A DNA stretch of 18,670 bases from a virus, in the UHGV virus genome UHGV-1662908; one strand, 5' to 3'. Positions 3-16,447 of this stretch are shown piece by piece; position 1 is the first letter of the stretch, and each line of letters begins with the position of its first letter. The position numbers and the translations under genes were made by a program. The notes beneath the pieces are model-generated. The model had not been told where the DNA came from. It searched no databases and was given only the letters and a program-made list of their open reading frames with translations.

Positions 3-407
3 TTCCTGGCCCCCGTAGCCGCTGCTGCTGCCGTTGGGGCGGGTATGGCGCAGGTTTCCGCTATCAGGTCCGCACGTGAACAGGGTGGTCAGTTATCCGC
101 GGGACAGGCTTCCACCATCGCTGAACGCGGTAAACCGGAAGTTATCATGCCCGCTGGGGCATCGCGTGTGCGCACCGCGCAGCAGATGAAAGAAATTATG
201 GGGCAAAACGGGTCTTCTTCCGGTCCGTCTAATGTTACTATTGTGAACAACACTAGTTCTCAAATTGGCAACGTATCCACAGAGCAGGATGATGAAGGCC
301 GTTTGCGTATCATCATCGAAGAGCAAGTGGCGGCATCTTTGCAGAACAGCAACAGTAAGATTAGCAAGGCCCGCAAGGCCACAAGAAATGCGCCGGGGTT
401 CAAATAA
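3..407 (+). CDS. C-terminal part of a virion structural protein continuing from upstream of the window (possibly tape measure or other tail protein); 5'-truncated
   Basis: Frame is open from window position 3 with no upstream stop (ORF track lists 45..407). Stop overlaps the next start (TAATG), coupling it to the tail gene cluster. No diagnostic motif recognised. Confidence 0.45.
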   Translation, partial: FLAPVAAAAAVGAGMAQVSAIRSAREQGGQLSAGQASTIAERGKPEVIMPAGASRVRTAQQMKEIMGQNGSSSGPSNVTIVNNTSSQIGNVSTEQDDEGRLRIIIEEQVAASLQNSNSKISKARKATRNAPGFK

Positions 408-907
408 TGAGCGACTTATATTTCCCACGTAGCCTTAAGCCGGTGGTATCGAAAGGCTACTCAATGACCAGACGCAACAACGTCTGGAGCGTTGATTTAG
501 CCGGTGGCGGTGTGCGTCAGGGCCGCGACACGTATTACGACGTGTTCCCGATAAGCGTAACCCTGATTACATCAGCACTAGGGCGGCAGGCGTTTCTGTC
601 GTTCCTTGAGAAAGTCGATGGTGGTGCTTCAAGTTTCTGGATGGCGCATGACTTCGGCATGGGTATCGAGGATTATCAGGTAACTATCACGTCAACCATC
701 GCAGAGTCCACAGAAGATGGCATTAACTGGACGATTACTTTCACGGCAACCGCTGAGAAATCGCCGTTCCAGAACCTTGAGAATCAGTGCCTTGTTAACA
801 ATCTGCCCGATTTGTATGGTTGCTATGGTGACAGTCTGAGAGGTTTCCTTAAAGCCTACGGAACTGCACAATCAACGTTTCCACGAATTTGGGACCCGAT
901 GCAATGA
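407..907 (+). CDS. hypothetical minor tail / tail-tip protein (166 aa)
   Basis: ORF track 407..907 with ATG start; coupled to both neighbours by overlapping stop/start codons; position between structural protein end and tail-tip genes. Confidence 0.55.
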   Translation: MSDLYFPRSLKPVVSKGYSMTRRNNVWSVDLAGGGVRQGRDTYYDVFPISVTLITSALGRQAFLSFLEKVDGGASSFWMAHDFGMGIEDYQVTITSTIAESTEDGINWTITFTATAEKSPFQNLENQCLVNNLPDLYGCYGDSLRGFLKAYGTAQSTFPRIWDPMQ

Positions 908-1419
908 GCCAGGAATCAGTAGAAGCAGCCTATCGCCGTAAGCTGGCCTCAAATCCCGACGGCGAGATGGACTACATCACGTTGCAAATCAGCCATCCGT
1001 TGCTGTCAAAGACGTATTATCTTGTGCGCGGGCTACAGGAACTTACGGCGACACTGGAGACGGGCGAAACAATCACGTTCGAGCCAACCCCGATGGAAGC
1101 GGCGGGAGCCGCTAACAACAGTGATATGGACCAGACGACGACGTTCACTTTACCGGATATTCTCAATCAACTGGACGACGAGATGGATAAAATCCCGATG
1201 AGTAATACTGAGTTGCCGAAGTTTGTATTCCGCCGTTATGTCAGCACCGACCTGTCTTACCCAGCGGATGGTCCAGTCGCGTACGAGTTACAGGCCATCA
1301 ACCAGGAGAAAGGTGAATTCTCCGCGGATGTCGGTACACCTATGCTGAACCAACGAAGCACTGGTATACTGATGACACCTAAAGAAATACCGTTATTACG
1401 CGGCCTGTTGACCACATGA
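904..1419 (+). CDS. hypothetical minor tail protein (~171 aa)
   Basis: ORF track 889..1419 begins at a TTG; the first in-frame ATG (MSQESVEAAY...) is at 904 and overlaps the upstream stop as ATGA, so 904 is the likelier start. Confidence 0.5.
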   Translation: MSQESVEAAYRRKLASNPDGEMDYITLQISHPLLSKTYYLVRGLQELTATLETGETITFEPTPMEAAGAANNSDMDQTTTFTLPDILNQLDDEMDKIPMSNTELPKFVFRRYVSTDLSYPADGPVAYELQAINQEKGEFSADVGTPMLNQRSTGILMTPKEIPLLRGLLTT

Positions 1420-1781
1420 ATATTAACGACTACACGGGCATACCTTACGACTTTCGCAAACGTAATTGCTGGCATCACGTGCGCATTGTCCGCGCGGATG
1501 CCGGGTTAGAAACCCCGGCGTTCGACGTTACAAGCCCAACGGCAATTAACGACGCGTTTGACGAAGGCCATCGCAACACGAAGGGACTTACAAAAATTGA
1601 TAAGCCTGAAAACTTCTGTGCGGTGCTTATGGGGTATCGCCGCGGGGGTCGTATCGTGTGGCACGCAGGAGTTTACTTCGACGGGATGGTGAGCCATTGC
1701 GAGCTTGCGTCCCGGCAGGTACGGCTTGACAGGCTGGCAGACCTCAGAGACACGTACACGGAGATTGAATTTTGGCGATAA
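1416..1781 (+). CDS. small tail-associated protein, possibly NlpC/P60-like peptidase (lambda gpK-like)
   Basis: ORF track 1416..1781; ATGA overlap with upstream gene; Cys- and His-containing segments (NCWHHV ... WHAGVYFDGMVSHCE) resemble the NlpC/P60 catalytic Cys and His-containing strand. Pattern-based only. Confidence 0.4.
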   Translation: MNINDYTGIPYDFRKRNCWHHVRIVRADAGLETPAFDVTSPTAINDAFDEGHRNTKGLTKIDKPENFCAVLMGYRRGGRIVWHAGVYFDGMVSHCELASRQVRLDRLADLRDTYTEIEFWR

Positions 1782-4327
1782 TCCTGCACTACACGCGAAA
1801 CGCAGATGGCGCTTTCGACCGCACAAAACACGTCGGGATGCCGATGGAGTTTGTCGTTAACCGTATCCCCGACGGCGTGCCGGTGCGCGTCTACCTCGGC
1901 GAGATTGGTGACGATACCGACGTAACTGACGACTTCGACGCGCTTAAAGACGAAGACGCGGTGTACCACATTATTGAGGGTGCTGGTGGTGGTATAGGTA
2001 ACGCTATTGGGAAGGTGTTTGGTTTTATCCTTAAGCCAATCGCTAAGTTGTTTGGTCTTAACCGGACACCTAATGCCGACTACACGGCGACTAACAATCA
2101 GACAACGTCACCGAACAACAGCCTTACCGACCGTTCCAACAAGCCGCGCCCTTACGAGCGCTCTTATGACATATGCGGGACTGTACAGACAATTCCTAAT
2201 GACCTGATGCAGACGTACAAGGCGTTCAACTCCACGGGCGCTTTGCTGGAGTATTCGTACTACGACGCAGGGCGCGGGCATCTGCATATTGAGGCCAATG
2301 GCGTCACAGAGGGTGACACCTTGATAAGCGACATCACGGGTTCCTCTGTTGCCGTGTATGCGCCGTATACTTCCCCTAACAACACCACATCCCCTCAACT
2401 ACAAATCGGCGACGTCATTGACCAGAAACTCTATGTGACATACTCCAATGATGACGTCGACGGCATTGTACTGAAAGCGCCAAACGACATCGGAGCTAAC
2501 CCAACCTCCGGCGGCACTGCCAAACGTATCTCAACCACCGGCTACATCTATGACCCGTCGGGCGACTCTGCTTTTTCTGAGTTTCTTAGTGTCGGTGATG
2601 TCGCGGTGCTGAGCAACTTTGACGTACGCGATGTCACTAACCTGAACGGCTCATTTGAGGTTTTATATGTCGACGACTTTGAGGTTCGGTTGTACGTCGG
2701 GAATATAGGTAACTGGGGCAATCTTAGTAATGGGCAGACTTACGCCCTGACAGAGCGTTCGGATACGTTTATAGGCCCGAGCAACACGTACGATGTGTCC
2801 CTGACCGACTGGTATTACATGGTGCGCGGAGAAGTTGACCGAGTGCTCGCCAACGTTGCTGGTCAGAACGGCCTCTACAAATACGATGGCGGCTATAACC
2901 GCACCAGCGTAACCGTAGAACTCCAGTACCAGATGATTGATTCCCGGCGCAACCCGTTGGGTGATATTTACACGGTACAGGCTACAATTACGGGCAACAA
3001 TACCGACTACGTCGGCACGTCTATCTACGGTCAACTGCCGACCGCGTCCCGTTTCCGCGCCCGCATGCGCCGTATAACGAATTTCGATAAGGACTATGAC
3101 GGTACAGTAAGCGACGAGATAACGTTCATCAACCTGTACGGGCAGTCCCTGGACACAACCCCACACTACGGCAACAGAACTACCGTACATTGCGCCCGTA
3201 AACAGACGCCACGTGCCGCAAGTATCGACAACCCGGAACTGCGCATGATCGCAACCGAGATGTGTTACAAATACCGGGGAAATGGGGTATTTGATACAGT
3301 AATGACGCCGAATACGCAGGCGGTACAATCGCTAATCAGACTGGCGCGTGACCCGGCGGTGGGCAATCTGGAACTCACAACGGCAAACATGGATAAGTTA
3401 CTATCCGTGCAGGAAGAAATTGAGTCCTATTTCGGAAGTGAATTGGCGGGGCAGTTCTGCTACACATTCGACGACTACGACACAACTATGCAGGACATCG
3501 TTCAGACTATAGCTGAAGCCGTGTTCTGTACCGCGTACCGTAAAGGCGCGGATATTATGCTGCGATTCGACCGCCCAGTCGCTGGGCCAGAGATGGTGTT
3601 CACCCACCGCAGCAAAACTACCGGGACGGAGAAATGGTCCCGCACGTTCAACGATTCGACAACCTACGATAGTCTGTCGTTCTCGTACATCGACCCGGAT
3701 ACTAACGTACAGGAAACGATTTATATCCCGGAAGAACTTGGGGTAAACACCGAAGAATACGAATCGAAGGGGGTGCGCAACTACCAGCAAGCGTACTGGC
3801 TTGCGTGGCGTCGCTACCAACGCAACGCGTTAAGTAAAGTTGTCGTAGAGTTCGAAGCTACCGAAGAGGGGGCACTCGCTACACCGGGCGGCGTAATCAG
3901 TGTGGTTAAAGGCTCGCGTATCGCGCCACAGGACGGCTATGTTGTTGCCGTTAATGGGCTTACGCTGACGCTGTCTCAACCTGTTACGTTTACTCCGGGG
4001 GATGACCACTCCATCATCCTCAAGAAGCGCGACGGCTCGGTGCAGAGTATCTCTGTTATCAAAGGAAGTCACGACCGTGAGGTGGTTATGCTCTCCGCGC
4101 CGGAGGAGGCAATCTACACAGGGAATAGTGCACTAAAAACTGAGTTTTCATTCGGCAACGAAGCAAGGCATAATGCTCAGAAGATAGTTGTTTCCTCAAT
4201 CGACCCGGGCGACGACCGCACGGTCAGGATTACTGGTTACAACTATGACGATGGATTCTATAAATACGACGGCGTCGCGCCATACGGCAGCGGTTTCTCC
4301 GACGGGTACAGCAACGGTTTTAATTAA
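1772..4327 (+). CDS. large tail-tip / host-specificity-like structural protein (851 aa in track; start uncertain)
   Basis: Long ORF 1772..4327 directly after the small tail proteins and before the tail fiber. Track start is a TTG overlapping the upstream stop; first ATGs are at about 1838 and 1844 (MPMEF). A Gly-rich hydrophobic stretch lies near the N-terminus (GGGIGNAIGKVFGFILKPIAKLFG). Confidence 0.6.
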   Translation: MAIILHYTRNADGAFDRTKHVGMPMEFVVNRIPDGVPVRVYLGEIGDDTDVTDDFDALKDEDAVYHIIEGAGGGIGNAIGKVFGFILKPIAKLFGLNRTPNADYTATNNQTTSPNNSLTDRSNKPRPYERSYDICGTVQTIPNDLMQTYKAFNSTGALLEYSYYDAGRGHLHIEANGVTEGDTLISDITGSSVAVYAPYTSPNNTTSPQLQIGDVIDQKLYVTYSNDDVDGIVLKAPNDIGANPTSGGTAKRISTTGYIYDPSGDSAFSEFLSVGDVAVLSNFDVRDVTNLNGSFEVLYVDDFEVRLYVGNIGNWGNLSNGQTYALTERSDTFIGPSNTYDVSLTDWYYMVRGEVDRVLANVAGQNGLYKYDGGYNRTSVTVELQYQMIDSRRNPLGDIYTVQATITGNNTDYVGTSIYGQLPTASRFRARMRRITNFDKDYDGTVSDEITFINLYGQSLDTTPHYGNRTTVHCARKQTPRAASIDNPELRMIATEMCYKYRGNGVFDTVMTPNTQAVQSLIRLARDPAVGNLELTTANMDKLLSVQEEIESYFGSELAGQFCYTFDDYDTTMQDIVQTIAEAVFCTAYRKGADIMLRFDRPVAGPEMVFTHRSKTTGTEKWSRTFNDSTTYDSLSFSYIDPDTNVQETIYIPEELGVNTEEYESKGVRNYQQAYWLAWRRYQRNALSKVVVEFEATEEGALATPGGVISVVKGSRIAPQDGYVVAVNGLTLTLSQPVTFTPGDDHSIILKKRDGSVQSISVIKGSHDREVVMLSAPEEAIYTGNSALKTEFSFGNEARHNAQKIVVSSIDPGDDRTVRITGYNYDDGFYKYDGVAPYGSGFSDGYSNGFN

Positions 4328-4339
4328 AGAGGACTCTAT

Positions 4340-7213
4340 ATGTCAAGCGGATGCGGTGACGTTTTAAGCCTGGCGGATTTACAGACCGCCAAGAAACACC
4401 AGATTTTTGAGGCAGAGGTCATTACCGGTAAATCCGGTGGGGTTGCTGGGGGTGCTGACATTGACGAAGCAACGAACGCTGTAACAGGGCAGGTGCAAAA
4501 AACATTACCAGCTGTTCTTGATGATATTGCGTTGAATGTAGTGCCTTTTAGCAAACAATATTCGGACCTTGCTGCCGCGCAGGCAGATATAGCTAATATC
4601 CCAGTAAATTCCTATACGTATATCAGAGATTCGTCTGGCAGCGCATTGGCGCTGGAATACCAGAACGTAGCCGGGGTCTTGACAGCCACAGGCCGAAAAA
4701 TGCCTTCACGGGCATCAATGGTCATTGGTTCTGTAGATTCGTGGGTTAATAACAATCTTTACTCATTTGATTCATTTTCATCGCCAAACGAAAACTTGGT
4801 ATCAATGAGCGTAGCCGCAGTAGATACGATTGCGTACCGAGAGGCCTACTCCGCTTTATTATCTACAGTTGCAGCGGGCGACATTATCACTGTCCGTTAT
4901 AGATACAGCGGAACCGGAGGCGCCCCAACCATTGGATTAAAAACATCGCTGAACGGCACATTTGTGAGTAATCAGCCAACGCTGACCTCTTCAAATGACT
5001 GGCAGGAAGTGCAGCTTACCGCTACCGCAGCTACCGCAACGCTCCTGGCTATCGGGGTGAACACAAGGCTTGCAACCACTGTTCAGTTATCGATTATCGC
5101 CTACGCATCGAAGAAAAATGCTATTACCACGGCAATTCTTAACTCACTGGATAGCATTTCCAGTTTAAATGGGAAGGTGCGTATTGGTTCTGTGGATTCG
5201 TGGGTTAATAATACCGGATATCCATTTTCCACATTTTCCCAGGTCAATAACAACCGCGTGAACTACGCTAATGCTTCAGGCGTATACTCTGAAATGTACG
5301 CCAACGCTTCCGTTCCTTCAGGCGAGAAGGTAACGCTCAGCTACTCGCTGGATATTACTTCAGGTCGTTTATTCGCTCGACTTGCCAACGGTAGCAACTG
5401 GACCAGCGACGAAGTCCAATTGACTAATGGTGATGCACGGCAGACTGTTATCCTGACAGCTACGGCAGACACTAAGCAGATTAAAATCTACTCAAAAGCA
5501 GAAGTTTCATCAGGGAGTATATTTGCAGAGGTAAACTTCGGACAGAAAAACTCACTGACCGAACAGATTGACGCGCTATATTCTTCAATCGCTTCAGCCA
5601 ATGCTGTTCTTGCTATTTTGTCACAAGATTCTACCTTCGACTCTTTCGTTAACAGTTCACCTTACACCTATACTCTTTCCGATGCCGGAACCGCGTATAA
5701 GCAATTGATGAACACAATCACCCCAGTATCTGGCGTTTCAACCGTCAAGATGATGTATAAAATTGCATCATCTAATGCGGCACTGAAGATTCAGAGTCGT
5801 AATGGTAATGCGTGGGGGGCAAATGAAAAGGCTCTCATTGCAGACGGTAATTATCATGAAGTGGACCTCGCATTAGCTTCGGGGCAGGTTTTCTCTGGGT
5901 GGGGTGTGTACTCAGCAGCAAAATCAGGTGGGTATCAAGCCGATGTGACGATGATTCCTGTTTCTGCCGATGGGGTATTTTTCACCCCAGCCACAGCTAT
6001 TTTGTACGGACTCATGACGTCCGCAGATTCACTCAACACCAGAGTTACCGCACTGGAAAACGGGCAGGTCACTAACCAGAATACTGACGTTATTTTCCCG
6101 GCATATTTTTATGCTGTAGATGGTCGTCCATTGCGTTTTTATGGTGCCAATATGGTCAGTGGTGCTCGCCCGTGGCGAAATAATACTGACGTTGTGCTGT
6201 CCAGTCATGGGTATGAGGGAAAGCCAGTATTACTTAAAAATGTTGTGCCTGACGCAACGATAATGCCGTCAGAAATCAACGGACCAACGCTGAACGTTAA
6301 TGCTCGTGCTGATGGTTCTGGGGATGTATTTCGTAAGAAAGCTGCGTTCACCAAACTGGCGGCGACTCAGACCGGTAACGTGAAAGTCGCTACTATTATG
6401 GACTCACTTGGTGAACGTTGCGTTCCTTGGTTGTACTTCGCCATCAATGCCACTGGTGCTGCTTACGTAGGTGCTGGTTCCCGAACCACTCGTGGTATAA
6501 CGGACGAGGGAGGTTACACTCTGCCAAATACACCGTCAGCAGGCATTCCTTTTGACGGTCGTGGTGGCTGGACGACGTTCGACTACATCGGGAAGACGCA
6601 GAAGACGAACTTCTCGCAGCCATTCCTGCGTGACGCTACGAGCACAGATTTCTCTGCTTATCCGCAGTATTGCTTCGATAAAGCCTACTCCGGGCAGAGC
6701 TATGCAGATAACCCTAATCTGGAGGGGTATCACATTTTTGATGTGACGGCATGGATGGCAGCGGCTGGCGTGAGCGCATCAGACAAACTGGTTGTGGTTA
6801 TCCAACTGGGATACAATGATTTGTATTATAACTACACCCCGCAGCAGACCGCCGACGCGCAGGAGTTCATGATTGCGAAATTCCGTGAGAAAATAGCGGA
6901 TTCCCGTTTCGTTATTTCTCACCAGGCATTTGGCTGGTCGGGAGCAAGTGCACCCAAGAATTGGCCTGACTTTGCAAAATGGATAACGGAGAAGGTCAGG
7001 AAGTTCGACAATCGCCTTGGCGAGAAAATAATTGTGGCGCCTGCATGGGCGCAGATGAGCTACAAATACGGAATGAACGAAACTATCACAACAACCAGTG
7101 ATACTGGTGTCCAGACTGTATCGTTACCTGATGACGTCCATCCCGGAGAGCTTGGCGGGGCGCAGTGGGGTGACGCTCTGGTTGCTCCTGTTCTGGCGGC
7201 GTGGAGTTTATAA
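4340..7213 (+). CDS. tail fiber / tailspike protein with tandem internal repeat domains and C-terminal SGNH (GDSL-like) esterase domain
   Basis: ORF track 4340..7213; ATG preceded by AAAGAGGA RBS. Repeated segments GSVDSWVNN(N/T)..(F)S.FS at aa ~129 and ~282, with a weaker third copy at ~aa 430. C-terminal ~280 aa carry SGNH-like blocks: IMDSLGE (block I-like), LGYND (block III GxND), DDVHPGE (block V DxxH). Confidence 0.7.
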   Translation: MSSGCGDVLSLADLQTAKKHQIFEAEVITGKSGGVAGGADIDEATNAVTGQVQKTLPAVLDDIALNVVPFSKQYSDLAAAQADIANIPVNSYTYIRDSSGSALALEYQNVAGVLTATGRKMPSRASMVIGSVDSWVNNNLYSFDSFSSPNENLVSMSVAAVDTIAYREAYSALLSTVAAGDIITVRYRYSGTGGAPTIGLKTSLNGTFVSNQPTLTSSNDWQEVQLTATAATATLLAIGVNTRLATTVQLSIIAYASKKNAITTAILNSLDSISSLNGKVRIGSVDSWVNNTGYPFSTFSQVNNNRVNYANASGVYSEMYANASVPSGEKVTLSYSLDITSGRLFARLANGSNWTSDEVQLTNGDARQTVILTATADTKQIKIYSKAEVSSGSIFAEVNFGQKNSLTEQIDALYSSIASANAVLAILSQDSTFDSFVNSSPYTYTLSDAGTAYKQLMNTITPVSGVSTVKMMYKIASSNAALKIQSRNGNAWGANEKALIADGNYHEVDLALASGQVFSGWGVYSAAKSGGYQADVTMIPVSADGVFFTPATAILYGLMTSADSLNTRVTALENGQVTNQNTDVIFPAYFYAVDGRPLRFYGANMVSGARPWRNNTDVVLSSHGYEGKPVLLKNVVPDATIMPSEINGPTLNVNARADGSGDVFRKKAAFTKLAATQTGNVKVATIMDSLGERCVPWLYFAINATGAAYVGAGSRTTRGITDEGGYTLPNTPSAGIPFDGRGGWTTFDYIGKTQKTNFSQPFLRDATSTDFSAYPQYCFDKAYSGQSYADNPNLEGYHIFDVTAWMAAAGVSASDKLVVVIQLGYNDLYYNYTPQQTADAQEFMIAKFREKIADSRFVISHQAFGWSGASAPKNWPDFAKWITEKVRKFDNRLGEKIIVAPAWAQMSYKYGMNETITTTSDTGVQTVSLPDDVHPGELGGAQWGDALVAPVLAAWSL
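4724..4753 (+). repeat. direct repeat copy 1 inside tail fiber gene (~29 bp, near-identical to copy at ~5183)
   Basis: Encodes IGSVDSWVNN; read as attggttctgtagattcgtgggttaataa versus attggttctgtggattcgtgggttaataa in copy 2 (about 28/29 identical). Coordinates derived from codon positions. Confidence 0.6.
5183..5212 (+). repeat. direct repeat copy 2 inside tail fiber gene
   Basis: Second occurrence of the same ~29-bp segment, ~459 bp downstream of copy 1, encoding the same IGSVDSWVNN peptide. Confidence 0.6.
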
Positions 7214-7377: not shown

Positions 7378-7559
7378 TTCTCACCTTCGCTTTTCTTGAA
7401 GCTGCGCTTTATGTCCGGCAGCGTGTAACATCGTGACTTTTCGTATTTACCGTTCGAGCTTACCAAAACAAAGCTGTTGCCGTCTTTTGATATGTACTCG
7501 ATGGTGAAAGTATTGAATGTGCGTATGCTGTATATTTCATCACCAACATTAAGTTTCAT
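7374..7559 (-). CDS. hypothetical protein (61 aa)
   Basis: ORF track 7374..7559; start overlaps the helicase stop; last in the minus-strand operon. Confidence 0.45.
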   Translation of the reverse strand: MKLNVGDEIYSIRTFNTFTIEYISKDGNSFVLVSSNGKYEKSRCYTLPDIKRSFKKSEGEK

Positions 7560-8980
7560 TTCTTACCTCGTCTCTTCATGTAATTAAGCAACTCTTCCTG
7601 TACCGATTTTTTCTCGTCCGTACGCGCGGCAACAACCTCGTCCAGCGTGTCTTTAGCGACGATGTGGTAGAGGAACACCGGGCGCTCGTGTCCTGCCTGT
7701 TTCTGACGGACTGGACCTATACGCTCAACGACCTGCAAATAGTGCTCAAGGTTCCATCCCTGACTTATGAACGCCAGATGATGCCCGCCGTCCTGTAAAT
7801 TTAAACCATGACCGGCTGACGCAGGGTGGACGCATAGTATTTCGATTTCACCACGGTTCCACGCTTCCATCTGCTTATTACCCTTAGCGCCTTTTGCAAA
7901 CGCCTGTGCCTGCGGGAAACGTTTCAGGATGCGTTCCAGTTCGTGCTTGAACTGATAAGCCACAAGCAGCGGCGCGCCCTGTAACTCCTCGACAATTGAC
8001 TCAAGCGCGTCAAGTTTCGTATCGTGCACTTTCTCCCAGTCTTTGGTTGCTTCGCCGTCTGGCCCTGACACATATACGGCACCGGAGGCAATCTGCAAAC
8101 ACTTCGACGTCTTCGCCGCAGCGTTAGCGGCTTCAACCTCCCCGCTCTCCAGTTCCGCGAATAACTTCTCCTCCATATCGATGTACGCCTGACGTGCTTT
8201 CTTCGGCAGGTCGATTTCCACTGGCACGATAACAGGCGCTTCACACCCGAACCACTCGGCAGCGTCAATCGTGAGACTGATGTCCTTCATCTTCTGGTGA
8301 ATTTCGTTATCCGCCCCCGGGCGCGCATGATACTCTCGCGCCATAGCGGACTTACCCTTCTGGACCGAATTAAACCAGCGGTCGGTGAACGCGGTGTATG
8401 AAGAACCCAGTCGCTCGCCAGCGTCAATAAACCAGTTCTGCCCCCACAAGTCCTTCAGGCCGTTTGGTGATGGCGTACCTGTCAGGTTGATAAAACGCTT
8501 AACCTTACCGAATGCCACTTTGCTAAGCGCCTTTGCCCGCTTGCTTCCGCCGGAACGGCTGCGGAATGATTTAAGTTTCGTGCTTTCATCGGCAACGATA
8601 ACCGTAAAAGGCCAGTCGTCTTTGCCGTAGTAGTCAATCAGCCATTCGATAACTTCATAGTTCGTGCACACCACGTTAGCGTATGACTCCAGCGCCGCGA
8701 TGCGGCGCTTCTCCGAACCCGTGGCATCGACGACACTCAGGCATGGGAATCGCCATTTCTCTTGTTCTGCTGGCCATGTGCCGGACGCAACGCGCAGCGG
8801 AGCTAGTATTAACACGCGGTCGTCATCGTTAAGTTGGCCGTTGCGGAACAGTCGGTTTAATGCCCACAGTACGCTGCCAGTCTTCCCGGCACCCATGCTT
8901 GCCCATATGTTGCAGCGATTGTGCCGCAACATAAACGAAGTCATGAGCTTTTGGTACTCGCGCCTTTGAAACTTAGACAT
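7556..8980 (-). CDS. SNF2/DEAD-like superfamily 2 helicase (~474 aa)
   Basis: Track ORF 7556..9298, but its first ~106 codons overlap the upstream gene and look non-protein-like; likely start is the internal ATG (MSKFQRREYQ) at 8980. Motifs: Walker A GAGKTGS, DExx box VIVADEST, SNF2-type motif III LTGTPSPN. Confidence 0.8.
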   Translation of the reverse strand: MSKFQRREYQKLMTSFMLRHNRCNIWASMGAGKTGSVLWALNRLFRNGQLNDDDRVLILAPLRVASGTWPAEQEKWRFPCLSVVDATGSEKRRIAALESYANVVCTNYEVIEWLIDYYGKDDWPFTVIVADESTKLKSFRSRSGGSKRAKALSKVAFGKVKRFINLTGTPSPNGLKDLWGQNWFIDAGERLGSSYTAFTDRWFNSVQKGKSAMAREYHARPGADNEIHQKMKDISLTIDAAEWFGCEAPVIVPVEIDLPKKARQAYIDMEEKLFAELESGEVEAANAAAKTSKCLQIASGAVYVSGPDGEATKDWEKVHDTKLDALESIVEELQGAPLLVAYQFKHELERILKRFPQAQAFAKGAKGNKQMEAWNRGEIEILCVHPASAGHGLNLQDGGHHLAFISQGWNLEHYLQVVERIGPVRQKQAGHERPVFLYHIVAKDTLDEVVAARTDEKKSVQEELLNYMKRRGKK

Positions 8981-9656
8981 GATTAGCCTCGTAAACTGCT
9001 TTTGCGAGCCCACGCGGAGTAAGGCTGCGGATTGTTTTTGTTCTGGCGCTCTTTCCGCCGAGTTTAGCCCAACCAGGGTTATCTCCGCTGCCCACGGCAA
9101 CCTCGGCAACGTTAGGCATAACAAACCCATTTCCGGCCCACAGGCACGTCTTTTTAACATATGCATCTCGCGCCGGGATAACATCCGGGAACATTGGATG
9201 CGTGTCGTCTTCGGGTAAATAGCCGCCGTATTCGTACGGATTGAACGCGTAGTCAGGCTTACGCCATAAAGACGAAAGAACGCTAACCGGGTTCTCAATC
9301 ATATACGGTACGTTGTACTTTTTAGCCAGACGCGCAGCCACTTTGCATGTAATCACGGCCTCTACCTGAAACGTTGGGTTCCTTCTCCGCTTCGTTTCGA
9401 AATGGGCCGCGCCGCTAACGGCTAAATCTGTGCATGGGGGGAACGCGAAAATAATATCCGGCGCAACGTCGAAGTCGAATTTATTATCAATCCACGCGTT
9501 TATATAGTGGATATTTTCATGTTCAACTTTTGCACCCAATCGAGCGTAGTCTCCGTGGTCGGCGCCGTCGTAGTTGAAACAATAGCAAGTATGGCCCGCT
9601 TCCGCCCACGGTTGGGCCATAATGCCCGAACCGTCAAACAATGACCAGACAATCAT
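8973..9656 (-). CDS. SAM-dependent DNA (cytosine-5)-methyltransferase-like protein (227 aa, short)
   Basis: ORF track 8973..9656. Motif I-like SLFDGSG (FxGxG), motif IV-like FPPC with candidate catalytic Cys, motif VI-like IENP. Shorter than typical C5-MTases, so the target-recognition region may be minimal or the function different. Confidence 0.5.
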   Translation of the reverse strand: MIVWSLFDGSGIMAQPWAEAGHTCYCFNYDGADHGDYARLGAKVEHENIHYINAWIDNKFDFDVAPDIIFAFPPCTDLAVSGAAHFETKRRRNPTFQVEAVITCKVAARLAKKYNVPYMIENPVSVLSSLWRKPDYAFNPYEYGGYLPEDDTHPMFPDVIPARDAYVKKTCLWAGNGFVMPNVAEVAVGSGDNPGWAKLGGKSARTKTIRSLTPRGLAKAVYEANHV

Positions 9657-10394: not shown

Positions 10395-10522
10395 TCCAGC
10401 ACCCACAGATAAATTGCGATGAACATACCCAATACGGTGACAATCATGCCGTATTGACCCTCGTGACAGTAGACACCGGCGGCGAATCCCGCCAGTAATA
10501 CGATAATCAGTTTACTTAGCAT
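10391..10522 (-). CDS. small hydrophobic membrane peptide (~43 aa)
   Basis: Not in track. My translation MLSKLIIVLLAGFAAGVYCHEGQYGMIVTVLGMFIAIYLWVLE; its ATG overlaps the last codons of the DNA polymerase gene and its stop overlaps the next ATG. Confidence 0.4.
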   Translation of the reverse strand: MLSKLIIVLLAGFAAGVYCHEGQYGMIVTVLGMFIAIYLWVLE

Positions 10523-13500
10523 AACGTTTCATCTCCGCACCTTCCGCTACAAGCGGGAACCCCTCAGCCCACTCAGGCAGCGAACACATTAATTTTTCCA
10601 GTTCAGCCACCGTGTAATCAGGCGTATCTGGAGTTTCACACACCAGTTCATCGTGTACCGAAAGCACGATGGGATACCCGCCACCCTCAACATTAATCAT
10701 CGCATATGCTAGTAAATCACGGCACAACGCCTGAACAATGTTTTCACAGGCTTTGCCGCCGTGGGTGTACAGGGTAGTCCATTGGCGGGTTAACTGGTTT
10801 TCACCTTGGTACTTGATTCGCACATTCGTGTTTACCCGTCCGTCTTCGTCTGTTTCTTTTGTCACGCTAACGCCGATCCCCGGATACGAGAGGATACGGC
10901 CTGACGGCAACTCCATACACAACCACCAACCGGGAACCTTCCTACCTGATGAATCGGTTTCTACTGTTCTCCAGATTCGGATAGCGCGCTCGCCATTCTT
11001 GCGCAAGTGTGCTCCCGCCCAAAATTCACGACCAGGATTGCGCACAGCGGCTAAAATTCCGTCTTTAAGGTCCCGCCAGAACGCTACTGTTTCCGGGTGT
11101 GACTCGCGCCACATACGCTTGATCGCGTCACATGTGCGCCACACTTTCTTGTCCAGAATATACGATGGTCTGTCGTCCTTTTCACCTGGATGCGGTGGCC
11201 GCTTTGCTTCCTGGATGCGTGCCCACTCGTACCCGCGTGCGGTAGCGGCCCATATGTGGCCCGGGAATGTACCGTCCATTGTTTTTGCCATCTCAATAAG
11301 GTCAAGACCTAAGTTTTTAGCGAACGTAACGAACGCTCCGACGCCTCCCTCGTAGCCGAGGCCAAGCTCGCAGTTATGCGCCACAAGAAAGCCAGAGTCT
11401 GAGGCTATAAGAAAACGGTTGCCGTCTTCCACATCAATCAGGTCGTACACCGGCTCGCAGTAGGTTAATTTCCCGCTCAAGTTCAGCAATGCGGGCAACG
11501 GCTGCATCATACTTTCGTTGAAGCTCGGGTATTTGCCGTCTGTTTCGGCAGTTTTCAGAACGGCTGACAAACCGAATGTTTCCAGGTTCGTAGTTACCGT
11601 CTGTGTCGATTCTATCCATTTCGAGGTTCGGGTCATCCCAGCTTTCCAGAGTTTGAACATATCTAAGAAAAGACCTTTTATCAGTCCTCCACTGGTCGAA
11701 TACCGTGATGCCTCTTGCCCCATAGTTTTTATAACCCTTATCCCTGGGGCTTGTTGTTCGCGTGATAGCCGCGGACAGCCGGTTGAGTAATCGCGTTCTG
11801 TGCGCATCATCCGGCATTGCGTCTTCGTAGCAGAAATACTGTTTACGATATTTTTTTGTTGCTTCAAGGGCGCAGCGGTTGCATTGAGTGGTTTTACCCG
11901 CTCTGACGTTGTCATAATAGACCCGCCCCGGCATCCCCCCGCAATCACATTGGACGAGTAGTTGTCTTTGGCCTTGTCGTTTTGGTAACTCGCGCAGGAT
12001 AACCAAGCGTCCATACCTCTCTCCAGGGCGAGGCCCATCATATATCTGTTTGAAGCGAGTTGCTTTGCCTGCTTCCAGGAATGCGCCAAGATTTTGTGGT
12101 CTTCGGTCATTAGCACCCCGTCCACATTTATTACCGGTTTCCACCCCATAAGGTGCGCGCCTTTTGTATTCACCCATTTTTCACCGCTCCATACTTTATC
12201 TGTTGATGTAACCGCCATAATATCCTTAAATCCGCCATCGGTCAAAACTTGGGTATGACGGTGAAGGCACGCTTTACCAATCTGGCGCAAGTCTTTACGT
12301 TCTTTCTTAATGTCGTCTGGGTCCATGCCAAACATCTTACCTGCGGTTACGCAATAAATATCCAGCCCGGCGCGGAACGTATCTAGCGCGGTTTCTTCGC
12401 CTGCAAGCCACGCAAGCCCTCGGCCCTCAACGTTAGAATAATCGGCAACAACAAACTTATGTCCTGCTTCCGGTATGATGCAGCTACGCACCGTCGATGC
12501 CGTTAATTTAGCGACATCAAAACGGCGGTGCGCGCGGCCCTTAAGTAACGCTGAAATGCCTTTATCCAGTTCATCATCGTGATAGTACCCGCGCGCGAGG
12601 TTCTGCGGTTGGAAGCCTTTACCCGCCCATCGCAGAGTGCGTTTTGCCCCGCCGTACTGCAAGCAACCGCGGCGTCGGTCGTCAGAAGAGCGGCCCAACA
12701 GCAGTGGGTTATATTTCGTTGATGCGGTGGACGCGGCCCCGAGGCGCATTTCTATAATCATGCGAGCATCGTCGGGTAAATCATCGTCTGCCAGCAGGTC
12801 ATTCAGTGTCGACTTCTGTGCGTTATGGATGCGGTGCGCGGGTGCGAGTTCACGCAGAATCGGAAGGAAGTCTTTACCAGTAAGCGAGCCGCCGTATTTT
12901 CGTTGGGCTTCTTCCTGTAACTGTGCCTTGTGCTTCTCCACGGCTTCAATCGCGGCTTCCGCCAGTGCGACGTCAACCTTAAACCCGCGGTCATTGATTA
13001 ACTGGTCCAGCTCCAGTACACGGTCCTCGAACTCGGAGTTACCCCAACGCGGCAGTTTATGGAAGACTTCACGCATCGCGGTGATGTCGCTCACGGCGTA
13101 CTTGATGAACAGCGCCCACTCGTCAGGGTGTGTTTCTGCGGTGTATCGACGGATTTTGTAGTTCTTCGGCGTCGGTTTAGAGAAACGCTGAATCAGCGCC
13201 TTGCCGCGTTTGTCTTTTGCATTGTCCGCCGATACGCCCAGCACTTCGCACAGCGCATCAAGTGACCCAGGCAGCGCGTGACGAAACGCTCGAATCATAG
13301 TGTCGATGGTATTTCTCGGTTTGATATCCACACCCCAGCAGTGCTTCATAACTAGCCTGTCGAACATTAAAAAGTTATGGCCTACAATTCTCATACGCCC
13401 GCGCATAACATTACGTAGCGCAACGCGTAGGCTTATTGGCATTACTGGTTCGGAAGTGCAATCCCATACTTCTACAGGCCCATCATCAACGGCGTATGTA

Positions 13501-13607
13501 CATATTATAATCTCAGTTGTTGCGTGTTCCGCGTATGCGTATGACCCTACTTTCTTTAGGTCAGCTTCAGAGAATGTTTCGGTATCAAGATACAATAAAT
13601 TAGCCAT
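10512..13607 (-). CDS. family A DNA polymerase with N-terminal 3'-5' exonuclease domain, interrupted by an intein (precursor 1031 aa)
   Basis: ORF track 10512..13607. Exo motifs YLDTETFS, GHNFLMFD, YAVSDI; polymerase motif A VVADYSNVEGRG; motif B split as RQIGKA / CELGLGYEGG; motif C VLSVHDELV. Confidence 0.9.
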   Translation of the reverse strand: MANLLYLDTETFSEADLKKVGSYAYAEHATTEIIICTYAVDDGPVEVWDCTSEPVMPISLRVALRNVMRGRMRIVGHNFLMFDRLVMKHCWGVDIKPRNTIDTMIRAFRHALPGSLDALCEVLGVSADNAKDKRGKALIQRFSKPTPKNYKIRRYTAETHPDEWALFIKYAVSDITAMREVFHKLPRWGNSEFEDRVLELDQLINDRGFKVDVALAEAAIEAVEKHKAQLQEEAQRKYGGSLTGKDFLPILRELAPAHRIHNAQKSTLNDLLADDDLPDDARMIIEMRLGAASTASTKYNPLLLGRSSDDRRRGCLQYGGAKRTLRWAGKGFQPQNLARGYYHDDELDKGISALLKGRAHRRFDVAKLTASTVRSCIIPEAGHKFVVADYSNVEGRGLAWLAGEETALDTFRAGLDIYCVTAGKMFGMDPDDIKKERKDLRQIGKACLHRHTQVLTDGGFKDIMAVTSTDKVWSGEKWVNTKGAHLMGWKPVINVDGVLMTEDHKILAHSWKQAKQLASNRYMMGLALERGMDAWLSCASYQNDKAKDNYSSNVIAGGCRGGSIMTTSERVKPLNATAAPLKQQKNIVNSISATKTQCRMMRTERDYSTGCPRLSREQQAPGIRVIKTMGQEASRYSTSGGLIKGLFLDMFKLWKAGMTRTSKWIESTQTVTTNLETFGLSAVLKTAETDGKYPSFNESMMQPLPALLNLSGKLTYCEPVYDLIDVEDGNRFLIASDSGFLVAHNCELGLGYEGGVGAFVTFAKNLGLDLIEMAKTMDGTFPGHIWAATARGYEWARIQEAKRPPHPGEKDDRPSYILDKKVWRTCDAIKRMWRESHPETVAFWRDLKDGILAAVRNPGREFWAGAHLRKNGERAIRIWRTVETDSSGRKVPGWWLCMELPSGRILSYPGIGVSVTKETDEDGRVNTNVRIKYQGENQLTRQWTTLYTHGGKACENIVQALCRDLLAYAMINVEGGGYPIVLSVHDELVCETPDTPDYTVAELEKLMCSLPEWAEGFPLVAEGAEMKRYAK
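11373..12269 (-). mobile_element. intein (299 codons) inserted in motif B of the DNA polymerase
   Basis: Boundaries computed from track coordinates: Cys447 (CLHRHTQVLTDGGF, block A) to Asn745 (VYDLIDVEDGNRFLIASDSGFLVAHN, blocks F/G), followed by +1 Cys; block B TEDHKILA at aa ~501-508. Confidence 0.75.
11434..12177 (-). CDS. HNH homing-endonuclease-like ORF lying inside the intein but in a different reading frame from the polymerase/intein frame
   Basis: ORF track 11434..12177 (247 aa); frame differs from the polymerase ORF ((13607-12177) mod 3 = 2). Contains GRLVIL...CDCGG...QCNRC and GYKNYGARGITVFDQW...MDRIDTDGNYEPGNIRFVSRSENCRNR, typical of phage HNH endonucleases. Recognisable part starts ~aa 50; the first ~50 codons overlap intein blocks A/B. 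Confidence 0.6.
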   Translation of the reverse strand: MGEYKRRAPYGVETGNKCGRGANDRRPQNLGAFLEAGKATRFKQIYDGPRPGERYGRLVILRELPKRQGQRQLLVQCDCGGMPGRVYYDNVRAGKTTQCNRCALEATKKYRKQYFCYEDAMPDDAHRTRLLNRLSAAITRTTSPRDKGYKNYGARGITVFDQWRTDKRSFLRYVQTLESWDDPNLEMDRIDTDGNYEPGNIRFVSRSENCRNRRQIPELQRKYDAAVARIAELEREINLLRAGVRPD

Positions 13608-14382: not shown

Positions 14383-15684
14383 TTATTCTAAATCTTCTTC
14401 ACTAACCTGATTCCACTCAGGCCGTTTGTCGTCTGCCGTTGCGACGCATGGCGCGCCTGGCTTACGAGTAACTTTCGTTTCCAGTTCGGCCCACATCCTG
14501 GCATACGCGCCTTTTAACACTTTTTCCGCTTCCGTTGGTGACATAACAGATTTCTTTGTTAGCAAATCCATGTCTACGTTATGGCGCGCTGCTAGTTCTT
14601 CGACCCATTTTTCATCACTCCAGCTACGATTACCCGGACGACCTTCAACCAGCTTATACCCCGGCACTTTCTTACCGGAATGCAAAGCGGCGGCCATAGC
14701 TTTCTCAACCTTGTCGATGTGCTGGCGCAACAACGGCAACTTCTCGTACTCAGCTACGAGTTGCTCTGGTGTCAGTTCCAGTGCAAAGTCGTCCTCCAGT
14801 TCTTCTGCCAGTACTGCGTTAACCGTCTTTGTACGCACGGCGCATTGTTCAGAGAACCGACACCACTGGCAGCCATCGACCGACGGCCTGAAGTCCGACG
14901 CTTTCAGGTTCTTCTTGCCGCGGAAATATGCATCAAGCGCCAACAGTGCACGTTTCCGTGCGAACTTAGCGAACAGTTCCAGACCTTCAACCGAGATGTC
15001 CCACTCCGACGCCCCACCAGCGTACGGTTGGAAGATTACCAGACGAACAGTTGTTATGTTATAACGTCTCTTGAGACGGCGATAAACACCGAGAGCGTAA
15101 AGCATAAGCTGTTTGTTTTCTTTCGCTTCGACACGATGTCGTCCTGTTTTCAGGTCGCCAATAATGAGCATGTGCTCGTCGGTGTTTGCCATCTCCTGTA
15201 CGGCAACAAGGTCAGAAGTTCCGAATGTCTGTAGTTCTTCTTGCCGTCCGTTAGGGCTATGAATGTAGCCAGGATGCAATACCTCAGTAAGATTGACGCA
15301 CATTTCCAGCTTGGCGTAAGTAGCCACGTCGATAATAGCTTTGCAGTAATCGGTGTACTTACGCACCTGCTCAATCATGTCAGCCGTAATCAGTACCGCG
15401 CCTTTCATCGGGCTGATTAGCGCCTTAATCTGGCCTTTGCCTTCATCCAGCACGTAAGCGCCAACTTCACGCCCTAACGGCAATGCAGTGCCACGGATAT
15501 AGGCGTTTAGATGGACCTCCGCTATGGTGTGCATGGCTGTGCCTAATACCGCAGCTTTACCGGACGTGTTAGGAATATCTTTCTCACAGGCCAGTGATGC
15601 AGCACAGCTTAGCCACTTTTTAGCGCCTGACGGTGACAGTAAGGCGTGCACATCGTTATTGCCGCCACGTTCTTTAAGAATCAT
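14383..15684 (-). CDS. PD-(D/E)xK nuclease of the DUF2800 / Cas4-RecB-like type (433 aa)
   Basis: ORF track 14383..15684. N-terminal HALLSPSGAKKWLSCAAS; IIGDLKTG...QLMLYALG matches a D..K...Q..Y nuclease motif; one N-terminal Cys plus a C-terminal CQWCRFSEQC cluster is consistent with a Cas4-like Fe-S site. Confidence 0.6.
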   Translation of the reverse strand: MILKERGGNNDVHALLSPSGAKKWLSCAASLACEKDIPNTSGKAAVLGTAMHTIAEVHLNAYIRGTALPLGREVGAYVLDEGKGQIKALISPMKGAVLITADMIEQVRKYTDYCKAIIDVATYAKLEMCVNLTEVLHPGYIHSPNGRQEELQTFGTSDLVAVQEMANTDEHMLIIGDLKTGRHRVEAKENKQLMLYALGVYRRLKRRYNITTVRLVIFQPYAGGASEWDISVEGLELFAKFARKRALLALDAYFRGKKNLKASDFRPSVDGCQWCRFSEQCAVRTKTVNAVLAEELEDDFALELTPEQLVAEYEKLPLLRQHIDKVEKAMAAALHSGKKVPGYKLVEGRPGNRSWSDEKWVEELAARHNVDMDLLTKKSVMSPTEAEKVLKGAYARMWAELETKVTRKPGAPCVATADDKRPEWNQVSEEDLE

Positions 15685-16178
15685 TTCTCAGCTCCGTTAA
15701 CTGTAAACCCATATTTAATCTCGGCTTGCCTACGAGCCTTAGCCGCGTTCTCTAACTTATCGTAAGCCCCTAAATAAATCGGCCTGCCGTCTACATAAAT
15801 TCTAGCGACCCACTTACCGTAGCGTTTATGAAACCCAACACCTTTAACCCCTGAAGTATTGTCGGTCCGTATGTTTGTGCCGTGTGCGATACTTCCCCGA
15901 CGCATTTTTATAAGATTTTCTATTCTGTTATCAGTTCTATCTTTATTTTTATGACGAATTACTTCCCCGGGCGCTATCACCCCGTTAAACATCTCCCAAA
16001 CTACGTGGTGGATAAGTTTAGTAGTCCCGTTAAAACGTAGTATTTTAAATTCACTCCCGTCGTTGTCCTCCCTCGTACTGCCAGCTTCTTGCCCTATTTT
16101 TACAGATTTTGACGGACTTATTTTCCAAAATAATTTACCGGTATCAGGGTCGTAGTCAAAAACTTCATGCCAGTTCAT
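15681..16178 (-). CDS. free-standing HNH homing endonuclease with C-terminal AP2-like DNA-binding domain
   Basis: ORF track 15681..16193; likely start is the ATG (MNWHEV) at 16178, overlapping the upstream stop (ATGA). HNH motif HHVVWEMFNG...IRHKNKDRTDNRIENL; AP2-like SGVKGVGFHKRYGKWVARIYVDGRPIYLGAYDKLENAAKARRQAEIKYG. Confidence 0.7.
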   Translation of the reverse strand: MNWHEVFDYDPDTGKLFWKISPSKSVKIGQEAGSTREDNDGSEFKILRFNGTTKLIHHVVWEMFNGVIAPGEVIRHKNKDRTDNRIENLIKMRRGSIAHGTNIRTDNTSGVKGVGFHKRYGKWVARIYVDGRPIYLGAYDKLENAAKARRQAEIKYGFTVNGAEK

Positions 16179-16447
16179 ACCCTGCTCTCCCACTGGTCAA
16201 TTAAATGTCGTGTCTTATGTTCGCAGTGCATAGCCCAGCTATACATCGACTCGAAGACATAAAAGTCAGGCTTGACGAACGTCGTGCGCTTAATCTGAGA
16301 CACGTGACGGCCTATATCTTTAGGCCATGGTACTTTGCCTAAGTACGCCATCTCTTCCATCTGGTGAGCACCGGACGGCGCACGTAACAGCCATAGCGCC
16401 TCTGTGGTATCCCGCCTGTCTACGGCGCGGTAGAGTTGGTAAATCAT
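16175..16447 (-). CDS. hypothetical protein (90 aa)
   Basis: ORF track 16175..16447; GAGGG RBS ~8 nt upstream of the ATG; stop overlaps the HNH-AP2 start. Confidence 0.5.
   Translation of the reverse strand: MIYQLYRAVDRRDTTEALWLLRAPSGAHQMEEMAYLGKVPWPKDIGRHVSQIKRTTFVKPDFYVFESMYSWAMHCEHKTRHLIDQWESRV

Follow-up and report, generated by a model that had tools for sequence, protein, structure and literature searches.

What occupies motif B of the DNA polymerase gene in UHGV virus genome UHGV-1662908, and does it hold one gene or two? The stretch analyzed here (the window, 18,670 nucleotides [nt] long) carries a family A DNA polymerase (PolA) gene whose motif B, the O-helix, is split by 299 additional codons. 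A first-pass annotation, made from the sequence alone, took these codons for an intein. With good confidence, the answer reached here is a composite element, namely a class-1 Hint intein in PolA motif B together with an HNH-family homing endonuclease gene that is nested within the intein and read out of frame. The phage that carries the gene is a siphophage of the Guernseyvirinae, of the Kagunavirus/Jerseyvirus type. Matches to its polymerase gene were found in 407 phage records, and Escherichia phage vB-Eco-KMB36 has a polymerase gene 93% identical to it.

An intein in motif B of the polymerase

The first question is where the polymerase ends and the insert begins. The span 10512-13607 covers the whole polymerase gene, and the intein proper is 11373-12269. 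The parts are as follows, with aa standing for amino acids.

10512-13607, minus strand: family A DNA polymerase precursor gene, 1031 aa including the intein (translation of the open reading frame [ORF], Pfam and Pol I structure matches)
12270-13607, minus strand: N-extein, aa 1-446, with a DnaQ-like exonuclease region, motif A and the first half of motif B
12417-12443, minus strand: motif A, DYSNVEGRG, in the N-extein
12270-12287, minus strand: first half of motif B, RQIGKA, in the N-extein
11373-12269, minus strand: class-1 intein, 299 aa (897 nt), from Cys447 (CLHRH...) to Asn745 (...VAHN), followed by Cys746
12012-12269, minus strand: Hint N-terminal region (Hint-N), with block A CLHRHTQVLTDGG, the WSGEKWV motif, block B MTEDH and WKQAKQL
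12096-12110, minus strand: block B, MTEDH (T-x-x-H)
11373-11474, minus strand: Hint C-terminal region (Hint-C), blocks F and G, VYDLIDVEDGNRFLIASDSGFLVAHN
10512-11372, minus strand: C-extein, aa 746-1031, with the second half of motif B and motif C
11343-11372, minus strand: second half of motif B, CELGLGYEGG, in the C-extein
10647-10658, minus strand: motif C, VHDE, in the C-extein

That the gene encodes a family A polymerase, as the first-pass annotation had it, is borne out by Pfam, in which DNA_pol_A matches two separate parts of the 1031-aa ORF (E=4.8e-16; 59 bits, the cutoff being 34.3), and by alignment with Pol I structures. The spliced extein (aa 1-446 plus 746-1031) can be aligned by phmmer with Taq, Klenow and 8jrb, with motifs A, B and C in order. 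In motif A, the extein segment VVADYSNVEGRG (ADYSNVEGRG) stands opposite the Taq segment ALDYSQIELR; in motif B, RQIGKA/CELGLGYEGG (here and below, a slash marks the insertion point) stands opposite RQLAKAINFGLIYG of 8jrb; and in motif C, LSVHDELV stands opposite LQVHDELV of a Pol I structure. Motif A thus lies upstream of the insert and motif C downstream, as had been read from the sequence, and this comparison with characterized PolA enzymes places the insert inside motif B. It splits the O-helix between Ala and Cys, a position given as one residue after the invariant Lys-Ala, which we take to lie between A759 and I760 in the numbering of E. coli Pol I. The proposed junction, RQIGKA-CELGLGYEGG, agrees with both the 8jrb alignment and the intein-free homologues, and Cys is indeed both the first residue of the intein (Cys1) and the +1 residue of the extein (Cys746).

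The uninterrupted form of the gene is common. Among the 120 best protein homologues, 98 (732-764 aa) run without interruption through KKNFKEIRQIGKACELGLGYEGG / RQIGKACELGLGY, and nearly all of these are exactly 732 aa long, which is the length of the present protein less the insert (1031-299). One of them, P0142 (732 aa, intein-free), shares 98% and 97% identity with the two exteins. Of the records in the phage genome collection, 473 have the spliced junction contiguous and 166 have the insert; the intein-free motif B DNA reads ...CGCCAGATTGGTAAAGCGTGCGAGCTTGGCCTC...

Related inteins were recovered with both junctions in 53 cases (281-305 aa), and the length of the insert is a multiple of three in every one of them (281-305 codons). 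A Hint-only alignment built from 31 of these diverse relatives has C1, T55, H58, H119 and N120 invariant, and the +1 residue is Cys in all but 4 of the 53, which have Ser. Some inteins of the Protein Data Bank (PDB) are matched by the Hint-only family profile, NEQ068 most strongly (3.9e-5), then the Spl DnaX mini-intein over positions 3-115 of 120 (2.3e-4) and, more weakly, Mtu RecA (0.01). No Hint domain was detected when the intein and the mini-Hint were scanned as single sequences with Pfam and NCBIfam, a homologue search with the 299-aa intein returned 4 proteins only, and the AlphaFold2 (AF2) model of the intein, made from a shallow alignment, reached a pLDDT (predicted local distance difference test) score of 30.

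The failure of Pfam and NCBIfam to find a Hint domain in the single sequence would be in keeping with a lineage-specific polymerase domain that is never spliced out. Such a domain would split the O-helix between the Ala and Cys of motif B, however, and near-identical polymerases lack it precisely. Its ends hold all of the class-1 catalytic residues and match PDB inteins by profile, and its middle is without protein-level selection in the polymerase frame, as described below. The idea is hardly credible, and it was rejected, given that alleles without the insert exist and that the insert has the catalytic residues of an intein. The polymerase gene is essential, its O-helix is interrupted, and the phages that carry the insert are viable isolates, so the 299 aa are presumably removed by protein splicing.

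The polymerase intein itself is already known. GenBank HE775250 (vB_SenS-Ent1) has a mat_peptide over the same 897 nt with the label “intein, encoding splicing domains”; the name “intein-containing DNA polymerase precursor” is given to several relatives, and an annotated intein is also found in S55 and GSP003. The intein in the polymerase of Jersey-like Salmonella phages (SETP3, SETP5, SETP12 and vB_SenS-Ent1) is the same element at 93-99% nucleotide identity, inserted at the same point of motif B and likewise 897 nt long. The SETP3 polymerase intein is presumably the one listed in InBase as SaP-SETP3 dpol. The host here differs from these phages in being a Kagunavirus-type coliphage whose exteins are nearest to intein-free alleles. 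The vB_SenS-Ent1 annotation also stops at the splicing domains and gives no endonuclease, whereas a nested ORF is recognized here.

A second gene in the middle of the intein

What, then, lies between the two Hint regions? The following features overlap there.

11434-12177, minus strand: nested HNH-family endonuclease ORF, 247 aa, in the +2 (= -1) frame relative to the polymerase and wholly within the intein
11473-12030, minus strand: about 190 polymerase-frame codons (about aa 526-711) that link Hint-N to Hint-C and are a read-through of the HNH core

The first-pass annotation was right to place an intein in motif B, but its insert cannot be regarded as one in-frame polypeptide, as the central ~190 codons are the out-of-frame read-through of the 247-aa HNH-family gene. 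The start of that gene overlaps the 3' two-thirds of the Hint-N region.

The nested protein matches the PHROG family phrog_374, HNH endonuclease, at E=9.5e-47, and also phrog_3377, 2081 and 8790; E-values for the HNH families of PHROG include 4.2e-22 and 8.2e-21 besides the best one, and an endonuclease VII family is matched weakly (E=1.9e-5). There are 291 homologues of about 235-260 aa. Invariant in the family alignment are CxC...CxxC (a zinc ribbon), HRxRLLNRL, YGxRG and DRxD..Y.P.N.RF...N..N, as well as His126 and the Asn residues N200, N209 and N212; the present ORF carries YGxRGI and DRIDxxGxYEPGNxRF...N..N. An AF2 model made with the family alignment has a pLDDT of 80, with most of residues 50-210 above 90 and the first 25 below 50, and contains a probable beta-beta-alpha element at residues 185-241. 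A comparison by hhalign of the nested HNH profile with the window's own HNH_3/AP2 protein was negative. The nested protein is a member of a large phage family annotated as HNH, and its nuclease chemistry is putative.

The two frames have been kept open together over a wide range of divergence. Through the HNH alignment, 80 viral loci were fetched, and the 59 with at least 37% HNH identity were used to compare the frames. In all 59, the entire HNH gene is spanned by a second long open frame, offset by +1 from its own. This host frame is 800-1300 codons long unless shortened by the contig, by sequencing gaps or (in SS3e) by frameshifts. The HNH frame in turn is uninterrupted, down to 37% identity, in those of the metagenomic loci whose contig contains the full ORF. 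The same two-frame arrangement was seen in three metagenomic contigs found through protein search. The host ORFs of those loci are PolA genes with an intein in motif B. In the phage isolates, every one of the 166 records aligns with 80% or more of the nested ORF.

Such dual openness is not a matter of chance codon choice. Within the HNH ORF, 51 unique genes have no stops in the polymerase frame and 923 in the third frame, while random synonymous recoding is expected to bring 9.4 stops per gene and never yields a stop-free one. The avoidance can be read from the protein as well: in the 51 genes, no Leu or Val codon ending in TA or TG precedes a codon that begins with A, and none of the 181 Met residues is followed by I, M, T, N or K.

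The two frames are nonetheless not under the same selection. Among five close relatives, the exteins have 100/57/432 variable sites at the three polymerase codon positions and the HNH core has 6/28/15 (chi-square p=5e-20), and the variability of the core peaks at polymerase position 2, which is HNH position 3. In the diverse set, amino acid identity over HNH residues 1-30, where the ORF overlaps Hint-N, is higher in the polymerase frame (0.45-0.50) than in the HNH frame (0.23-0.32); over residues 49-215 it is higher in the HNH frame (0.44-0.59) than in the polymerase frame (0.22-0.30), and the conserved frame switches from one to the other at about HNH residue 40. The polymerase-frame translation of the core has a single PHROG match, to a family built from these same polymerases, and its AF2 pLDDT is about 20, which is weak evidence given the shallow alignment. 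Because codon-position variability and amino acid identity differ between the Hint ends and the core, selection can be assigned by frame: Hint-N and Hint-C are selected in the polymerase frame and the core in the +2 frame, and the polymerase frame of the core is simply stop-free.

These results also bear on a reading of the insert as a group I intron with an endonuclease ORF, in which the polymerase would be restored at the RNA level. This is how Sodalis phage SO-1 is annotated (gp38 and gp39 are noted as “contains type I self-splicing intron”), HNH genes are well known inside group I introns of phage polymerase genes (PMC3428280), and an endonuclease frame that differs from the exon frame is usual for intron ORFs. 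An intron, however, would not need the exon frame to be open across the insert in every relative with its stops avoided, nor a length that is always a multiple of three, and here the ends of the insert encode Hint blocks under polymerase-frame selection (Cys1, TxxH, HN/Cys). A search of window positions 11000-12700 on both strands found no Rfam Intron_gpI match at E<=1. With no ribozyme match, an exon frame kept open by stop avoidance and Hint blocks at both ends, the intron was rejected as highly improbable. In the SO-1 record itself (GQ502199; L092), the polymerase at 302-3490 is annotated as containing the intron, and the nested ORF is gp39 at 1786-2544; the label appears to be a misannotation of an intein with an out-of-frame HNH gene.

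The nested 247-aa gene has been overlooked in nearly all of the database records among the matches listed (40 of 166 for the intein and 45 of 166 for HNH), where it is annotated as a separate ORF only in SO-1 and SS3e. One record labels the insert a group I intron, another gives an intein without an endonuclease, and the gene callers applied to metagenomes sometimes choose the HNH ORF and omit the polymerase, as in viral locus L006. Most of the metagenomic homologues of the nested HNH protein (P0003-P0120) come from contigs of 0.9-1.3 kb, about the size of the intein. These contigs may reflect breaks in the assembly graph at intein-plus/intein-minus polymorphisms in natural populations.

SS3e (NC_006940; L089/L008, 1601-2499) is the sole relative with a broken polymerase frame, its insert being 899 nt long rather than 897. 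Its record gives the polymerase as two fragments and adds an “HNH endonuclease” of 268 aa in which HNH is joined to part of Hint-N. SS3e was considered as an in-frame ancestor and set aside, since it has 2 extra nucleotides compared to all other alleles, the record is old, and a sequencing error is probable.

Possible expression signals and the footprints of homing

How could a gene buried in this way be expressed? Candidate signals lie in the Hint-N coding sequence.

12175-12190, minus strand: initiation signals of the nested ORF, with GGAG (12187-12190), a 9-nt spacer and ATG (12175-12177), formed from the Hint codons W-S-G-E-K-W
12217-12245, minus strand: sigma-70 promoter-like TTGACC-17 nt-TATTAT in Hint block A, about 40 nt upstream of the nested ATG

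An ATG is present in 51 of 51 unique relatives within the HNH-frame stretch left open after the last upstream stop. It arises from the Hint motif L-W-D-G-x-x-W-V in more than one way (xxA TGG GTN gives ATG GGT, xxA TGG GAY gives ATG GGA, and TGG GTA TGC gives ATG CC). A strict Shine-Dalgarno (SD) sequence with a 3-12 nt spacer is found in 17 of the 51, compared to a background of 9.6%. A three-codon mini-ORF in the HNH frame (ATG GAG CGG TGA, 12181-12192, minus strand) ends 3 nt before the nested ATG and is not conserved beyond close relatives.

The promoter-like element occupies intein nt 25-53, in the codons V-L-T and x-I-V, and recurs at the identical position in 25 of 51 diverse inteins, compared to 0.45 such sites per kb elsewhere in those inteins. 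Codon choice follows the same pattern. TTG encodes Leu9 in 27 of 41 cases (13% in the exteins), ATA encodes Ile17 in 21 of 46 (16.5%), and codon 16 ends in T in 31 of 47 (18%), a synonymous bias with p-values of 1e-14 to 4e-6 when shared ancestry is ignored. TTGAC-17-TATxxT is therefore, judging from position and codon bias, a probable internal promoter of the nested gene.

The nested protein could instead be made by programmed -1 ribosomal frameshifting out of the polymerase frame, which would yield a fusion of N-extein, Hint-N and HNH. The HNH frame is the -1 frame of the polymerase, and the ORF's first ~45 residues show little conservation and are predicted to be disordered, so that entry would be possible anywhere among them. 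A slippery heptamer of the type X XXY YYZ is found in the permissive zone in only 5 of 51 relatives, however, and in this window there is none. Frameshifting would also have no need of the ATG that is kept in all 51, nor of the GGAG and promoter-like element upstream, and in relatives at other sites the HNH gene lies in the other (+1) frame. As a general mechanism it is very unlikely, and it was rejected on the scarcity of the heptamers; independent expression of the nested gene from its own ATG remains the favored reading.

Has the element moved? A feature just outside the intein speaks to this.

12270-12311, minus strand: co-converted extein flank of about 42 nt, identical to the Salmonella-phage donor-type allele

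With Salmonella phage fSE4S, the intein shares 99.1% identity and the gene as a whole 87.6%. In 150-nt windows, the identity of the N-extein to fSE4S is 58-81%, and it jumps to 99-100% from ~42 nt upstream of the insertion site through the end of the intein. The closest exteins are instead those of intein-free Kagunavirus alleles (98% amino acid identity). Compared to L090, the closest intein-free allele examined at the nucleotide level, there are 14 differences clustered in the last ~33 nt before the insertion. The five residues before RQIGKA are NFKEI in 98 of 98 intein-free homologues, whereas alleles that contain the intein have graded replacements of it (NFKDI, NFEDI, NFKDL and ERKDL). 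Variable sites make up 8.7% of the intein and 26.8% of the exteins, and the element is also present in Dhillonvirus phages (Pubbukkers and SO-1). This mosaic identity with its graded tracts is the kind of footprint that recent and repeated homing with co-conversion leaves, as far as sequence comparison can tell. Footprints of recent, repeated homing would in turn imply a working endonuclease, for which the nested ORF is the sole candidate in cis. The nested gene is thus the likely engine of the element's mobility.

Some observations weigh against a nested gene that is an active HNH endonuclease with its own promoter. At the position of the first His of the H-N-H motif, there is an invariant Arg (D188-R189, “DRID”) in 37 of 37 nested members. 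The Pfam HNH models matched none of the 37 members of the nested family, and CapR matched 7 of them; scanning the nested ORF itself with Pfam and NCBIfam gave no HNH domain either. The count of promoter-like sites in the region is also not above the expectation from shuffling.

The absent catalytic His would be expected if the element were now an ordinary intein and nothing more, with the HNH ORF a decaying relic that was once in frame and was displaced by two compensating indels, so that the intein would be immobile and inherited vertically. The order of Hint-N, HNH and Hint-C is that of canonical HNH inteins, and the vB_SenS-Ent1 record, as noted above, describes splicing domains only. A relic would not be expected to have its frame intact in every isolate record and in the 59 metagenomic loci, though, nor to show a third-position substitution bias in the HNH frame with twice the amino acid conservation of the polymerase frame. 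The ATG is conserved and the AF2 fold is confident. The intein is far less diverged than the exteins and has co-conversion tracts beside intein-free sister alleles, which points to recent horizontal spread. As for the Arg, DRID is common to the free-standing relatives too, and so it is not a degenerate state. A relic pseudogene is unlikely, and it was rejected on the intact frame, the purifying selection wherever this was examined and the footprints of transfer.

The composite intein and endonuclease would then work as follows. A selfish element occupies the O-helix (motif B) codons of an essential phage gene, that of the family A polymerase. In the polymerase frame it encodes the N-part (about 85 aa) and C-part (about 35 aa) of a Hint domain, joined by ~190 stop-free codons. 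After translation, the 299-aa insert would excise itself and join RQIGKA to CELGLGY, restoring motif B. The -1 (+2) frame of the same DNA encodes a separate 247-aa HNH-family endonuclease, which would be made from its own conserved ATG, with the signals of the nested gene (GGAG, ATG and the promoter-like TTGAC-17-TATxxT) overprinted on the Hint-N coding sequence. In a coinfection, the endonuclease would cut polymerase alleles that lack the intein, and repair would copy the intein and a short flank into them.

Related elements, known systems and neighboring genes

How widespread is this arrangement? In a library of 1.84 billion proteins, clustering at 50% identity gives the Hint family 1065 clusters at E<=1e-3, and 348 of them at E<=1e-10; most are proteins of 900-1100 aa. 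A comparison of L013, L012, L010 and others with this window, L038 and L046, and with L017, gives three insertion points in motif B that are 1 and 4 codons apart: K-x/C-x-L-G-L-G-Y, K-I-A/C-L-A-L-G-Y and K-x-x-x-L-[AG]/C-G-[FY]-G. In intein-free alleles of this window's type, the +1 Cys is native. Related Hint regions with a nested out-of-frame HNH gene are also found in an SNF2 helicase (after LTGTLLLNRPSE) and at a second PolA site (GGKICEN/C), and in three cases in PolA motif B the HNH gene lies in the other alternative frame (offset 2, not 1). The loci with other sites or frames are L059 (host aa ~290-650), L063, L068, L069 and L084. In the loci of the Hint clade that were examined, an HNH gene of the free-standing type is thus overprinted in either alternative frame.

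One could consider the out-of-frame layout to be a stable and ancient architecture and not a rare accident, in which the Hint-N codons V-L-T, x-I-V and W-D-G-E-E-W-V double as -35, -10, SD and ATG. This is a tentative proposal, to which we give not quite an even chance. If it is true, the splicing domain and the expression signals of the endonuclease coevolved in the same nucleotides, and the element is a compact selfish module of two genes and a testable intermediate for the model in which splicing came first and the endonuclease invaded later. The dual coding is long and clean: over about 245 codons there is no stop in any of the 51 genes, certain dipeptides are forbidden, and a possible promoter and ribosome-binding site (RBS) lie within a coding motif. 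This makes the element of use in studies of overprinting and in intein engineering, in which a Hint domain that tolerates a ~190-aa linker without sign of amino acid selection is of interest. The carriers are culturable phages of E. coli and Salmonella with many natural intein-plus and intein-minus sister alleles, which can serve for studies of expression and homing.

Published cases of an out-of-frame endonuclease come from actinophages and cyanobacteria. Actinobacteriophage inteins with the homing endonuclease in a separate frame were described by Gosselin, Arsenault and Gogarten (bioRxiv 10.1101/2025.01.02.630785); the endonucleases there are endonuclease VII-like in “frame 3,” or are LAGLIDADG or VSR enzymes in antisense. 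Those inteins resemble the present one in having Hint blocks in the extein frame with the endonuclease ORF between them in another frame, an unstructured extein-frame read-through and signs of continuing horizontal transfer. They differ in the endonuclease, which here is a DRID/YEPGN, HNH_3-like protein (phrog_374), and the sections of the preprint consulted describe no promoter or SD overprinted on Hint. A 2026 preprint, to go by its title, reports the same architecture for a cyanobacterial dnaX intein. The layout that defines an intein with an out-of-frame endonuclease is present in this window, with a complete ORF at 11434-12177 between the splicing blocks and the extein frame open throughout. 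Literature searches turned up no paper in which the nested ORF of this polymerase intein is described, and the paper on the nearest relative, vKMB36, states that inteins had not been reported in coliphages and leaves this one unmentioned (PMC11162368). The element is thus an addition to an architecture described very recently, in 2025-26 preprints and in other genes.

Other systems share parts of this design. In mycobacteriophage ShiLan, an out-of-frame “hidden” HNH endonuclease lies within a DNA methylase gene (PMC11855218). There too, the HNH gene is nested in a host gene whose frame stays open, and the ShiLan insertion homes actively. It has no Hint domain, however, and its insert stays as a loop of the protein, whereas here there is a full class-1 intein; ShiLan also has no detectable RBS, and leaderless initiation has been proposed for it, in contrast to the GGAG and promoter-like site found here. 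In the fractured genes, a free-standing endonuclease gene lies between the halves of a split intein (Dassa et al. 2009, PMC2677866). These likewise pair a Hint domain with a separately translated homing endonuclease of the free-standing type, a pairing that fits the model in which free-standing endonuclease genes invade inteins. The fractured genes consist of two split ORFs that splice in trans, whereas here overprinting keeps the host frame in one piece, with splicing expected in cis. Canonical HNH inteins and the HNH gene of a group I intron (I-PfoP3I, PMC3428280) also have an HNH-type endonuclease that targets a conserved polymerase motif. In the canonical inteins, unlike here, the endonuclease is an in-frame domain, and in group I introns the host frame is not kept open, while in this window no intron RNA was detected.

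The remaining observations concern other genes of the window. At 15681-16193 (minus strand) there is a free-standing homing endonuclease gene of 170 aa with HNH_3 and AP2 domains (Pfam 6.3e-13 and 5e-6). It sits upstream of a DUF2800/PD-(D/E)XK nuclease gene, is a second mobile-element candidate in the replication module and is absent at that place in three relatives whose annotation was examined. A 227-aa ORF at 8973-9656 (minus strand) has the motifs LFDGSG and FPPCTDLAVSG, which are reminiscent of a C5 DNA methyltransferase, with no Pfam match at E<=0.001. The SNF2 helicase ORF at 7556-9298 (minus strand) is intein-free here, while its SETP3 and Ent1 homologues carry a LAGLIDADG intein; as listed, this 580-aa ORF begins at a TTG well upstream of its likely true start (MSKFQRREYQ...). 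At 4340-7213 (plus strand), a 957-aa protein resembling a tail fiber or tailspike carries at its C terminus a GDSL/SGNH esterase domain that Pfam scores at 8e-5, slightly short of the cutoff.

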